A stretch of 64,000 bases of DNA from Pristiophorus japonicus. Taxonomy: Eukaryota. Under the pieces are notes generated by a model. It saw only the letters and a list, made by a program, of their open reading frames with translations, did no database searches and was not told where the DNA came from. The position numbers were made by a program, and so were the translations under genes. The stretch lies in assembly GCF_044704955.1 (NCBI RefSeq), contig NW_027252668.1, forward strand, positions 11,904,001 to 11,968,000, written 5' to 3'. Position 1 is the stretch's first letter. Each line of letters starts with the position of its first letter. This document shows positions 14,930 to 48,245 of this stretch, piece after piece.

Positions 14930-15018
14930 TGACCGCCGCAGGACTTGAACCTGCAATTTTGCAATAAAGTCTCAGCTACAATCGAAGTCAAACACCTTAT
15001 CAATTAAGCCACGCGGTT
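14930..15018 (-). tRNA. tRNA-Arg(TCG) pseudogene with 16-nt intron
   Basis: AACCGCGTGGCTTAATTGATAAGGTGTTTGACTTCGA-[TTGTAGCTGAGACTTT]-ATTGCAAAATTGCAGGTTCAAGTCCTGCGGCGGTCA; 73+16 nt. Confidence 0.85.
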
Positions 15019-15888
15019 TCTGCCATGACCGCACCCTTTCTTGTTGTGACAATTGGGAGCTAATTTGGAGCGACTGCTGTATGAAGGAGTGGATTTCAGA
15101 AACATTGAGCGGATTTCGAGTAAATGAACAGATGCATTGCGATCTGTGTGCGCACCGGTGCAGGCAACCCTATTTTAACTTGGAACACAGCAGTTTATCA
15201 ATTCGGTCATTGCAGCTGAAATCACACTCCTTCTCAAACTATAAAGGATGAGGTGGGATTATGAGAAAATCAGTCTTAAATGGAGAGATTATGAAACGAA
15301 ACTGACAACCATCCTGTTTAAACAGGCACAGAATGATGCGGGACTGCAAGCACATCCCTTTTACACAACTGTGGAAAGACTCCTGACTGACAGCAATTCC
15401 CTTTTAAAAGAATAAGGTGAGATTGCTATAATCACTGAAGACAATTGTGCAGGCAGAACAAAAAAGCACATTTATTTTGGAAGTTAAAAAGTTGGGATTG
15501 GATATAAATATACATTTATACATACAAAGTCAGTCAGTGTTGTGTTGTCTTAATTTGAAAATAAGGGTGGAGGATGTCATCATGTCACACAGCCCACACG
15601 CAAGCCCTCGATAAAATCGCTATATTTCTAACTAGTTTATTTTCCCTTCTTTCAGATGTGGAATAGCAAAATCCCACAGCAGATTCTATTACCGTCAGAT
15701 AATCCACGAAGGAGTGTTCAATCAAATCAGTATGGTTTCAAGCTGCATGTAATGCATTTTTCTCACATGACAGTAAGATCGCACAGCACGCTTGCACACA
15801 CACTCGCTTACACAAACACACAAACAAACTAAAATTCCTGCACCCTCTAAAGGCAGTTTTAGAAATTTGAAATTTGAACTCCGGGACA

Positions 15889-16055
15889 GACAGCACATCG
15901 CTTTTAAACAGACACAGCATGATGCAGAGCTGATCGCACACCATTTTAAACAGACACACAATGATGCGGGTCTGATAGCACAGCATTTTAAATAGACAGA
16001 GAATGATCCCGGACAGACAGCACGTCACCTTCAGAGGGACACGGAAACAGAATGA
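15889..16055. repeat. ~42-bp tandem repeat (GACAGCACATCNCTTTTAAACAGACACAGAATGATGCGGGNCT), about 4 units
   Basis: Units start near 15889, 15932, 15974 and 16016. Related units occur near 15300, 17945, 19810, 38840, 45095 and 50110. Confidence 0.75.
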
Positions 16056-16913
16056 ATATAAACAAATAAATATGTAAAGCTCAGCAGGTCGTGCAGATTC
16101 TGTGGATGAAGAACCCGGATTCACGTTCTGTCGGATAATCATTCCTATATTTTAGGAAAAAGTTCAAGATTACAGATTTTTTTCAAAAAAATAGCGCCTG
16201 AAAATAATACGCAGCGAGAAACGTCAAATGGGAACGTCTGTGATACAGTGTAACGCAGGAGTGATTAAATAATAAATGGCGCAATGGAGAAAGGCAAAGT
16301 GGGGGTTTATCGGGCAATAACGTAACAAAGGATGGTCCAGAGGAGGTGTTCGTGGGAATAGCAGAACCATTATCAGACAATGGGAGCGGTGCTTATCACC
16401 CGATACGTTGAACCTCATGTTGAGGCCAGAAGACTATAACATGCCTGCAATATAAGGTGTCAACGCTTTTTTATCAGACCAAGATGCTTGGCCACCCCGG
16501 ATTGATTTCCTGTCCGCTCTGAATTCGGCAACCAAGAGAATAATTCAAAAGCCAGCTTCTCACATCTTTTCAGCTCTCGAGAAACAGGACGCATTCATAT
16601 TCAGGGCAGAGGTGCAGATTGACGCTGAATGTATGCTTATCCCAATTGAGGTGAACTGATGCGTACAGACAGGAAGATATACTGATCAATTATTGGCGGC
16701 AACTAAACACAGGCTTCGGTTATCCAACGAGTCACAGAGCCGAGTACCTCTGAGATACTTTAACTTTACTCAGTTGTGTGAGTTTCACTTTGCTCTGGGA
16801 TTTGGAAGCTGTGGGAACAATCGGCGCAAAATCACACGTTTTATTGTGAAATATATCTGTTTTCTCACATGTCAAGCTGCTGTGAGGAGCGGAACTTTGA
16901 ATAAAAAATGGCG

Positions 16914-17000
16914 GGGCTCGTTCAGGATTTAGCCCGAGACCTGTCGCATTGCAAATGTGATCATTCCTAAGGGAGATTCATACCCCGATACCAACGAGCC
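16914..17000 (-). tRNA. tRNA-Pro(AGG) pseudogene with 16-nt intron
   Basis: GGCTCGTTGGTATCGGGGTATGAATCTCCCTTAGGA-[ATGATCACATTTGCAA]-TGCGACAGG...ACGAGCCC, followed by a T6 run (A6 at 16903-16908 on +). Confidence 0.85.
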
Positions 17001-17265
17001 GCCGACGGTGAAGAGCGCAGCTCTCAGATTCTGACTGTAGTGAGAAAAGATATTAGGCCCATCATGCCTGCGCTGTCCCTCAGCGACCTATCGAATTAGT
17101 CCCCCTCTCCGCAGTTCCACAAATGTTTTCCTGTTGACGAATATATTATTAATTTGAGACATGACATGATCAAAGTGCAGCATCCTTGTCAGTGAAAGGT
17201 AAATTCGGCGATGAGGTTAATGTGATTGACAAAGTGACCAGGTGAGTCAAAGCTGAACACAAATA

Positions 17266-17347
17266 CGACGAGGATGAGATTCGAACACATGCGTGCAGAA
17301 CAACATTGATTAGCAGTCCATCGCCTTAACGTCTCGGCCACCTCGTC
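17266..17347 (-). tRNA. tRNA-Ser(GCT) pseudogene
   Basis: GACGAGGTGGCCGAGACGTTAAGGCGATGGACTGCTAATC...TTCGAATCTCATCCTCGTCG; 82 nt. Confidence 0.88.
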
Positions 17348-45419: not shown

Positions 45420-47094
45420 GATTTTGCGTCAGGCTTTCCTGTTTACTGGGCCGCACAATGCATTTTGCAGCATATGAACAATTCAGAGAAGGAAAGTGCT
45501 GCCCGAGCACTTCTTCTTACAAAAGTGGCTCCAATCCCACCCTGTTTTCCTCTGCGTTCTCTTAGCGCCCTGAATCGATTACACAGAAGCAGGAGCAGGC
45601 CGTCGAGATTGCAACACATGGACAGCAGGAGTTTATTAACCCCCCAAGCTAGTTGTAATGTACATGAGAAAGCCATTTCGCTCCTGGAAACTGATATACA
45701 GGGACAGTAGGAGGGAAGTAACTCTTCGGGATTGAGCCAGATGGGAGACATAAGTCATCCAGCTTTTTGAGCATGTTGTACAAGAAGATTCGAAGCACAT
45801 TTACCCCTCGAAACATTTGCATAGAAAGAGTACGAGGCATTTCAGACCCACGAACCTGTTATACTGGAACAGGAGGATTCATCAAGCACATTACACAGGC
45901 GGGGTCCAATCATAAAAGCATGATGTTTATTTTAATGAAAGAGTAATCCAGAGAGAGGAATTCACCGCCCAACATGAAAGCAGTGAAATTTAAATTCAAT
46001 TACATAAAGCTAGAAATTTAAAAAGTATCAGTAATGGTGACCATTTTCGGAACACACCCATATGGTTTACTAGTCTGCTTTAGGGTTGGAAAGCTGCTGT
46101 CCTTACCGGTGCAGGCCTATATGCGACTGCAAAACCACAGCAACGTAGTTTACACTTAACTGCCCTCGAAAATGGCCCCGTGAGTTACTAAGTTACATGT
46201 GCTGGCTCACCACGATCTTCACAAGGGCAACTAGAGATGAACAACAGATGCTGCCCTCATTAATGTTGCCCATATGCATGAATTTATAAAATAAACAATA
46301 GAACCTCTAGTTTGTTAGACAGGAGAAAAAAATGCCTCAAGCTAGGTCAGCGAATGCGGAGTCAGGAGAAAACTAGATGAATGGATAAATAACTGACTTC
46401 AAGACAGAAAGCCGAGAGTAGTGGTAAAAAATAGCTTTTCATGTGGCAGATGTTGCGTAGTGGTGTTCCACAAGATCGGTGCTGGAATAACTCTTGTTCA
46501 CAATTTCTATTAAAGATTTAAACCTGCAAATCAAAAACAACAATTTCAAAACGTTGCAGATGACACCGAATCAGGTGAATGCTCAATTCTGAGAAGGACT
46601 GCAACAAACTAAACGAGGACATATGCAATCTTCCAGAATGGGCATTTAATTGGCAAAATGAATTTCAAACCACATAAATGTGAGGTAACACACTTTGGTA
46701 GGGGGAATTGGGAAGAATTGGAGTGTGCCAGTCTGGGGGGAATAGAGGAACAAAGGAATTTCGGAGTAAAAATACACAAAACTCTAAAAGTTACAACACA
46801 TGTTATCAACCCAATAAAAAAGCAAACCAAGCACGATGATTTATTTCTTGATATATTGAATTGAAATGTAGCAAAGTTATGCTAAACTTGTATTTAACAT
46901 TGGGTAAACAAAACTTAGGGTACTGCTAACAGTTCTGGTCGCCAGATTATAAAAAGGAAATAGAGGCATTGCAGATTTTGCAGGGCAGAGTTAGAACGAT
47001 GGTACCAGAACAGACGGCGTATTTATATCAGGAAAGAATGAACAGACTAGTCTTTTTTCTCTTGCAAAAGGAAGGCTGTGGGATCAGCCTCTTT

Positions 47095-47400
47095 AACAGA
47101 TATTGGGAGAGTGAGGGATGTGCTGTGCCATAAAGTTACATATTGTGAGGAATAAAATTCAGCTGGTGCTGATGTCCGACAGTACCTCATGGATACCCAG
47201 TTTTCAGCTGCTGGATCTGTTCTGAATCTATTCCATTTAGCACGGTGGTAGTGCGAGAGTACACGTTGCAGAGTGTCCTCCGTTTGAAGACAGGACTTTG
47301 TATCCAAAAGTACTGTGCTGTGTTCACTCCTACCAAGATTGCCATGGACAAATGTATCTTCGACAGACAGGTTGTTGAGGAGGAGGTCAAGTCGAATTTT
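47095..47400 (-). mobile_element. LINE APE endonuclease C-terminal fragment
   Basis: LDLLL...LGRSEH...HYHRAKWNRFRTD. Confidence 0.7.
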
Positions 47401-47748
47401 CACTATCGGAGTGGCAGCAGTAAGGGAACACTGCTGTTTTTCGGATGAGATCTTAAACCCAGGCCCGAGCTGGACCTAAAAATTTCCAGCCCACTGTTCC
47501 TAAGAAAAGCAGGAGAGTTCACCCCAGTGTCCTGTGGCCAATATATATCACTCAACCAACATCTGGTCATTATGACATCGTGCTTTCTTGCTAGTGTAAA
47601 TCTGTTTTTATATTTCCTACATTAGAACAGTGGCCACACTTTAAAAGTATTTAACTGGCTCTGTAACGCTTTGAGAAATCCTGATATGACAAGAGCTGTA
47701 GAAATGCTGTTTTTTTCTTTTATAGCCGATACAAGTGCAAGGTAACAT

Positions 47749-47822
47749 GGCGGGTTAGCTTGGTTGGTTTAAGTGTGGCGTTGATAACTACAAGGCCGCG
47801 TGTTTTAACCCTGTTGATGCCT
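47749..47822 (+). tRNA. tRNA-Ile(AAT)-derived pseudogene (module B copy 3)
   Basis: GGCGGGTTAGCTTGGTTGGTTTAAGTGTGGCGTTGATAACTACAAGGCCGCG...; 74 nt, 408 bp upstream of the Arg(TCG) copy. Confidence 0.65.
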
Positions 47823-48156
47823 TTAGTTGTTATTTTTTGGGGACGGGAAGGGCGTTGCGAGTATCTTAGCTTTATTATTTTAGAGCAGCTTAAACATTTA
47901 GTAATGAAACTCACACAGTTACTGCAATAATTTGAAACAATGCAGCAAAATCGTGTTTCTGCCGAGATACATGGAACTGCGGAATTTTTCCAGCATTTAA
48001 AGGAAAATTATCTCCTTTATTTTGGGACTTTTCGTAATTCAATCAGTGAATGGCTCAATGCCTCTGAATGGTTTGCAGTTCAATGTACGGAACTGAAATA
48101 TATATTTTCCAGTTTGTAATCGCTCATTCTGAGCATTATTCTGCTGCAAACTGCAG

Positions 48157-48245
48157 GGTCACGGAACTTGATGGATAAAGCCTCTGACTTTGGCACGAAA
48201 CCTGATGTTATCAGAAGAATGCAGGTTTTAGTCCTGTTGTGGTCG
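48157..48245 (+). tRNA. tRNA-Arg(TCG)-derived pseudogene with 16-nt intron (anticodon now TTG)
   Basis: GGTCACGGAACTTGATGGATAAAGCCTCTGACTTTGG-[CACGAAACCTGATGTT]-ATCAGAAGAATGCAGGTTTTAGTCCTGTTGTGGTCG, then TTTTT. Confidence 0.83.

Follow-up and report, generated by a model that had tools for sequence, protein, structure and literature searches.

Five loci in a 64,000-nucleotide (nt) stretch of the Pristiophorus japonicus genome (contig NW_027252668.1, positions 11,904,001 to 11,968,000; hereafter the window) derive from genes for tRNA-Arg(TCG) and carry a 16-nt insert in the anticodon loop, between positions 37 and 38. Comparison of the window with the assembly of which it is a part (5.92 Gb, 4,318 contigs) indicates that this insert is probably a canonical TSEN/RTCB intron in a functional and amplified tRNA-Arg(UCG) family, with the window holding dead copies of that family. 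The type of intron is already known; what is new is the isoacceptor in which it is found, the scale of its spread and the survival of an intronless parent.

All five window loci aligned as derivatives of Arg(TCG) genes with 16 nt right after position 37, in agreement with the preliminary description of this DNA. The pairing details given there were also correct: the inserts of the module B copies (G37/G73 type) have G at position -3, that of locus 41822 pairs with canonical positions 34-37, and that of locus 17589, which belongs to module A (A37/A73 type), pairs with 33-36. The designation of all five as tRNA-Arg(TCG) loci stands with respect to their ancestry, but only two of them still read TCG (the others now have GTG, TCA and TTG) and all are decayed. 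Their exons match those of intact genes at 52-61 of about 73 positions, and the exons are no more similar than the flanking sequence of the corresponding unit (P=0.33, 0.99, 0.39, 0.24 and 0.089 for the five loci). In Rfam searches two of the five scored 28.5-29 bits, as against 60-62 bits for intact intron-bearing genes, and the remaining three gave no match at E<=1. All five are pseudogenes, none of which retains an intact mature tRNA body. Locus 17589 comes from a decayed yet amplified subfamily (40 scored copies, 92-100% identity).

The picture is quite different among the intact intron-bearing genes. Between the subfamilies on contigs C750 and C27 the exons are identical at 73/73 positions, while the 250-nt flanks agree at about 0.80 and the introns at 9-10 of 16 positions (binomial P=5.8e-8 and 9.2e-9); as the baseline for shuffled flanks is 0.61, this exon-versus-flank test is conservative. 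An intron-bearing gene on contig C32, which combines G37/G73 with the intron and a T-run terminator and sits in an otherwise intact cluster of Ile, Ser and Arg-TCT genes, likewise has exons identical at 73/73 positions to those of an intronless gene linked to POLG, with flanks near the shuffled baseline. In the C750 unit, four Arg and four Ser-GCT genes are intact or have one change, whereas the Pro gene of the same unit is decayed. Judged by these comparisons, the intact intron-bearing genes are under selection.

A genome-wide census by exact-pattern searches, with the first 100 matches of each 16-nt-insert pattern listed, recovered 1,134 Arg-TCG junctions with a 16-nt insert and A37, and 136 with G37. 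Since the reversed control patterns gave 1 and 0 matches respectively, the pattern is not a product of chance. Exact intronless junctions numbered one with G37 and four with A37, and one intact intronless Arg-TCG gene was found against the 1,270 junctions with the insert. When one mismatch was allowed, the intronless A37 junction had nine matches, namely two Arg-ACG genes, the G37 gene and six fragments; the G37 junction had 408, of which one was exact and the 99 others listed came from an intronless Arg-ACG array and its CCG variants on C1. Perfect A37 5' exons and intact 3' exons numbered 579 and 649, and those listed lie mostly in tandem arrays on C750, C1187, C603, C198 and C27. Among 86 distinct loci fetched by searches without a fixed insert length, 77 have an insert of 16 nt, five have none and four have 14-17 nt. 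Arg-ACG junctions with a 16-nt insert gave only five matches, all with introns of the TCG family; we read these as anticodon point mutants of that family and rejected an intron in the Arg-ACG genes, the true members of which are intronless. The array of intronless tRNA-Arg(ACG) genes on C1 is tandem with a period of about 1.2 kb (476.27-476.41 Mb and beyond; L180-L207) and has recurrent CCG-anticodon variants, also with a damaged T-loop. With 16 nt as the sole insert length searched, tRNA-Pro had 1,057 junctions with the insert versus nine intronless ones, and these nine genes are all intact or nearly so and lie singly or in small clusters on large chromosomes. A metagenome scan for the junction with the insert returned 0 matches. 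The census thus bears out the expanded tRNA-intron repertoire, including Arg-TCG and Pro, that had been proposed, and the intact Arg-TCG genes, far from being all intronless, are overwhelmingly intron-bearing; the description of this repertoire as lineage-specific amounts to a comparison of one genome with human.

Taking out the 16 nt leaves exactly the exons of the intronless gene, which fixes the position of the insert between N37 and N38. The introns of the intact genes on C27 (module A) and C32 (module B) have 12 of 16 bases in common, including the last 11, which rules out two independent intron families as first proposed and leaves one homologous family; the end CGAACTT at locus 17589 has decayed from the CGAAGTT that closes the intron in intact copies and in retroposed ones. 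With a single homologous intron, equal length and pairing register follow from common descent, so that the earlier argument that they imply past selection for splicing fails. The case for selection and splicing is instead built on exon conservation and on the spliced retrocopies described below. G at -3 is present in 7/8 copies with perfect exons, 17/18 near-perfect ones and 37/51 decayed ones, and is lacking in both module A window copies (14930 and 17589). In the intact array and cluster variants, which are not independent of each other, nucleotide C32 faces G-3 in 4/4, with 4-5 of 5 register pairs formed, a state attained by 4.9% of random 16-mers from the window. CpG-type sites account for much of the variation in the intron. 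Across copies in this genome the anticodon loop does not vary, which makes a within-genome covariation test impossible. The Arg-TCG introns match the anticodon-intron (A-I) geometry as described for TSEN substrates (PMC10539383, PMC10275265), while in an intact intron-bearing Pro-AGG gene U32 lies opposite A-3; according to PMC4090602, anticodon-intron pairing is not a prerequisite. On sequence grounds the geometry fits that of TSEN substrates, without establishing selection on the pairing.

Dispersed retrocopies offer traces of transcription and splicing. We collected 55 unspliced copies on large contigs by a match to a junction expression (L048, L061, L065, L067 and L151 gave no match and were dropped). 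The 5' end of 50 of the 55 lies no more than 5 nt from position 1, in many cases with some leader sequence included, and the majority stop at the first T-run, some 20 nt beyond the gene; in form they are what would be expected of primary transcripts of RNA polymerase III (Pol III). Several are joined to copies of other small RNAs. In addition, six intronless fragments with exactly joined exons were found in DNA unrelated to the arrays, and no microhomology at the intron ends that could explain a clean deletion is present in the sequence. Three of the six keep a 3' trailer. The 22-nt trailer of L098 is identical in nine intron-bearing copies; that of L099 is identical in three matches representing two distinct loci, window locus 17589 (22-nt trailer) and L015. 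The fragment L100 (A37/A73 type) ends in A73 followed by CCA. The 5' starts of the six are at positions 27, 27, 27, 30, 33 (27 by eye, with two mismatches) and 11, as against 0/55 unspliced copies starting at 27 or later (Fisher P=1e-6; some unspliced copies were found by patterns needing part of the 5' exon, but the pattern behind the largest group would have admitted a start at 27). Most spliced fragments therefore begin just after G26, the site of N2,N2-dimethylguanosine (m2,2G) in human tRNA; m2,2G26 is reported in human tRNA-Arg-UCG (PMC11834103), and modification of the m2,2G type stops reverse transcriptase (PMC8062790). We infer that the six fragments (n=6) are complementary DNA of spliced, modified tRNA. 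No convincing target-site duplications were found at them, the longest common words being of 5-7 nt.

Two further features of the retrocopies were noted. Many independent pre-tRNA copies with differing intron variants share one repeat context and have a short inverted T-run/A-run at both junctions, a pattern that resembles a hotspot of recurrent insertion or break repair within a single repeat family. Others are concatenates of two pre-tRNA-Arg variants, either head to tail (L056, L123, L124, L137) or head to head (L052). The partners fused after a pre-tRNA-Arg retrocopy in L055 and L058 are sequences that we take to be tRNA-Phe-like and like the 5' end of U2 small nuclear RNA, respectively.

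Taken in sequence, the proposed pathway would begin with Pol III transcribing leader, exon, intron, exon and trailer and stopping at a T-run some 20 nt downstream. The cuts at 37/+1 and -1/38 would be made by TSEN, which would gauge distance from the tRNA body while C32 pairs with G-3 of the intron and another 3-4 pairs join loop and intron; ligation by RTCB would then yield tRNA-Arg(UCG), mostly as the A37/A73 isodecoder. The insert is likely to be cut out by the normal tRNA splicing machinery. Splicing can apparently come before 3' trimming, because spliced copies keep the trailer. Tandem amplification with birth-and-death turnover would give rise both to the arrays and to the decayed copies in the window.

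The single intact intronless gene (L105) lies head to head with a POLG coding exon about 7 kb away (E=8e-62) and sits at the highest CpG bin of 40 examined. Human tRNA-Arg-TCG-1-1 is located in the POLG promoter (PMC5425787), and the intronless gene appears to be its ortholog; because the arrangement matches the human one, the linkage of Arg-TCG with POLG seems to have been kept across jawed vertebrates. That the gene is a retrocopy, which the CAA following it might suggest, became less likely once the linkage was found. An anticodon shift from an intron-bearing Arg-TCT gene was ruled out as a source of the intron-bearing family, since its exons are of the TCG type and the TCT intron has 18 nt and a different sequence. 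The POLG-linked gene is likely to represent the ancestral state, and the most economical interpretation is that a duplicate acquired the intron and was then amplified, the insert having likely been gained once in this lineage, in one Arg-TCG gene.

Retention in place of gain, with an intron ancestral to jawed vertebrates and lost in bony vertebrates, strikes us as rather unlikely. The tRNA-Pro genes show the same pattern, which could be old; yet the gene apparently orthologous to human TCG-1-1 is intronless here, as are the Arg-ACG genes, and a single origin is suggested by the presence of one homologous intron whose length varies little from 16 nt. It is also conceivable that a single Arg-TCG gene was inactivated by the insert and went on to spread as a satellite-like family that is transcribed without serving translation; the POLG-linked gene would then supply the working tRNA, and any splicing would be incidental. 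The existence of one perfect intronless gene, the decay of most copies (as in the window, and with a decayed subfamily itself amplified) and the A37/A73 changes that separate the arrays from the POLG-type gene would all suit such a history. It is made improbable by exons that remain identical across diverged subfamilies while introns and flanks drift, by Arg genes that are intact where the Pro gene of their unit has decayed, by the C32 gene, which has the same exons as the intronless gene and lies in a cluster that is intact in other respects, and by the existence of a spliced, CCA-ended A37/A73 copy. A family of tRNA-derived short interspersed elements (SINEs) whose head happens to hold a 16-nt insertion is most improbable. 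Some dispersed retroposed copies do occur on large chromosomes, but they stop at the first T-run and have no SINE body or tail. Moreover, the window copies and the tandem arrays have 1.3-3 kb of flank in common, with neighboring Ser and Pro genes, and among the perfect copies listed most sit in 2,344-bp tandem arrays. We ruled out a SINE origin on the multi-gene structure of the units and the missing body and tail. The window loci are duplicated tRNA-cluster DNA and not SINE insertions, because they match multi-gene units at the kb scale; the possibility of a tRNA-derived SINE, raised earlier, thus gives way to tandem and segmental tRNA-cluster units.

Several points weigh against a functional, spliced intron. 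Gene conversion could account for part of the exon identity, and 308/408 one-mismatch matches to the intronless G37 junction fall outside those listed. Within the intron, A-11, T-2 and T-1 are as constant as G-3, which is no better kept than several unpaired positions, and position-wise conservation is uninformative as proof of selection on pairing. RNAfold gave the C32:G-3 pair a probability of only 0.00, 0.00, 0.31 and 0.04; it was equally uninformative as support for the A-I register, a control gene with the known type of Arg-TCT intron being also low (0.17). There are only six spliced fragments, of which L097 and L103 are short, with no diagnostic 3' end, while L104 has a similar trailer but no intron-bearing copy matched it within 4 substitutions. 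Such fragments could also come from an intronless A37/A73 gene now lost or missing from the assembly, and expression and splicing are read from DNA fossils. Finally, the timing and direction of the change (gain here or loss in bony vertebrates) are judged from one genome.

The window is repeat-rich and contains many decayed tRNA genes (Table 1). Its minus-strand Arg copies belong to decayed copies of a 2,344-bp unit that forms intact arrays on C750, C1187 and C603, and strongly decayed Ser(CGA)-like relics lie about 100-120 nt upstream of these module A Arg genes (15138-15216 and 17779-17859, minus strand). The three plus-strand copies cluster with Ile, Ser(CGA) and Arg(TCT) genes, and an intact counterpart with matching gene order is present on C32. 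The window also has a 30-bp tandem repeat (5190-10521; 177 copies, 80% matches), a near-perfect 81-nt inverted repeat (19109-19189) with a mir-135 score on both strands that is below gathering and probably a hairpin artefact, and a decayed 5S rRNA-like sequence (61643-61751; 27.7 bits, below gathering).

Table 1. Features of the window and related loci elsewhere in the assembly; plain coordinates are window positions
Feature	Position	Strand	Evidence or remarks
tRNA-Arg(TCG) pseudogene, module A (A37/A73 type), anticodon TCG	14930..15018	-	ARAGORN; Rfam 28.5 bits; exons 61/73 vs intact array gene
16-nt intron-like insert at 37/38 of locus 14930; T at -3, A-I pair lost	14966..14981	-	sequence alignment
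tRNA-Arg(TCG) pseudogene, module A, T-loop damaged	17589..17677	-	exons 60/73 vs intact gene
16-nt insert of locus 17589; pairs in register with 33-36; C at -3 where intact genes have G	17625..17640	-	
Arg(TCG)-derived pseudogene (locus 27919), module B, anticodon now GTG, 1-nt deletion	27920..28006	+	
16-nt insert of locus 27919; G at -3	27955..27970	+	
Arg(TCG)-derived pseudogene (locus 41822), module B, anticodon now TCA, 3' end approximate	41821..41910	+	
16-nt insert of locus 41822; G at -3, pairs with canonical 34-37	41858..41873	+	
Arg(TCG)-derived pseudogene, module B (G37/G73 type), anticodon now TTG, then T-run	48157..48245	+	Rfam 29 bits
16-nt insert of locus 48157; G at -3	48194..48209	+	
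Decayed copy of 2,344-bp tandem unit (Ser-CGA-like relic, Arg-TCG with intron, Ser-GCT, Pro with intron)	15814..18182	-	84.5-85.6% identity over ~2.4 kb to L077
Second, more decayed copy of 2,344-bp unit	14155..15452	-	~80% to L077; 78% to 16788-18082
tRNA-Pro pseudogene with 16-nt insert	14280..14367	-	
tRNA-Pro pseudogene with insert	16914..17000	-	
tRNA-Ser(GCT) pseudogene, module A	14611..14692	-	
tRNA-Ser(GCT), module A, damaged	17266..17347	-	ARAGORN and Rfam scans and alignment
tRNA-Ser(CGA), module B, damaged	28303..28385	-	ARAGORN and Rfam scans and alignment
tRNA-Ser(CGA), module B, damaged	42227..42308	-	ARAGORN and Rfam scans and alignment
tRNA-Ser(CGA) pseudogene, module B	48406..48487	-	
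tRNA-Arg(TCT) with intron (known vertebrate intron family), damaged	45328..45419	+	Rfam
More decayed tRNA-Arg(TCT) copies	39066-39156 and 50365-50447		
Intronless Arg-TCG gene (L105)	C17:21184861-21184933		sequence search
Retrocopies in common repeat context	L057, L059, L060, L121, L122, L128-L130, L135-L137, L140, L143, L152, L153		

Descriptions of tRNA introns in vertebrates usually draw on four human families; to our knowledge, these four are the complete human list and the human Arg-TCG genes are intronless. The families named in the available text of one source are Tyr-GUA, Ile-UAU, Arg-UCU and Leu-CAA (PMC10275265), and a structure of TSEN has been described (PMC10539383). The Arg-TCG genes studied here resemble these families in the short insert at 37/38, in C32 lying opposite the antepenultimate G with a 3-nt 3' bulge geometry, and in the coexistence of intron-bearing and intronless genes within one family. 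They differ in that Arg-UCG is not among the families named, in the presence of more than 1,200 copies with one homologous 16-nt intron, and in that the dominant isodecoder is A37/A73 and the intronless gene the rare one. A 2025 preprint (Squalomix) describes many tRNA loci in shark genomes and an expansion of intron-containing ones, clustered on few chromosomes; its accessible text does not name their isotype, the split between genes and pseudogenes or evidence of splicing. The present loci are probably part of its count of intron-bearing shark loci. A literature search, which had most subscription papers and GtRNAdb outside its reach, found no title or abstract on a vertebrate Arg-TCG intron, with PMC8450103 contributing nothing on the subject, and the figure or supplements of the Squalomix preprint may list isotypes.

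Zebrafish has maternal-type tRNA clusters as against solitary somatic-type genes (10.1101/869651; PMC11075544). The present genome is similar in having large clusters plus solitary genes for one anticodon (the Arg-TCG arrays against one POLG-linked gene, and 1,057 against nine for Pro); it differs in the intron, no such signature being reported in the accessible text on zebrafish. By analogy, sharks might run two tRNA sets, with germline or maternal arrays bearing introns in Arg-UCG and Pro and a small ancestral intronless set in the soma, a tentative idea that we hold to be somewhat doubtful. A simple rule equating arrays with introns is contradicted by the intronless Arg-ACG array and by the solitary, intron-bearing C32 gene.

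If sharks did possess two such sets, their eggs and embryos would depend on tRNA splicing to decode CGA and proline codons. If the insert is indeed a spliced intron, the retrocopies would record the order of processing, with splicing and G26 dimethylation preceding removal of the 3' trailer, and would be usable as fossils of the processing and modification of tRNA. The origin of tRNA introns and the reasons for their persistence are described as an open question (PMC4090602, PMC10275265). The C32 and POLG-linked genes, with identical 73-nt exons in one genome, would form a natural pair for the effects of an intron on modification, expression and dependence on splicing, and the family as a whole would represent a vertebrate lineage in which the gain of a tRNA intron can be dated, with its intronless parent still present.

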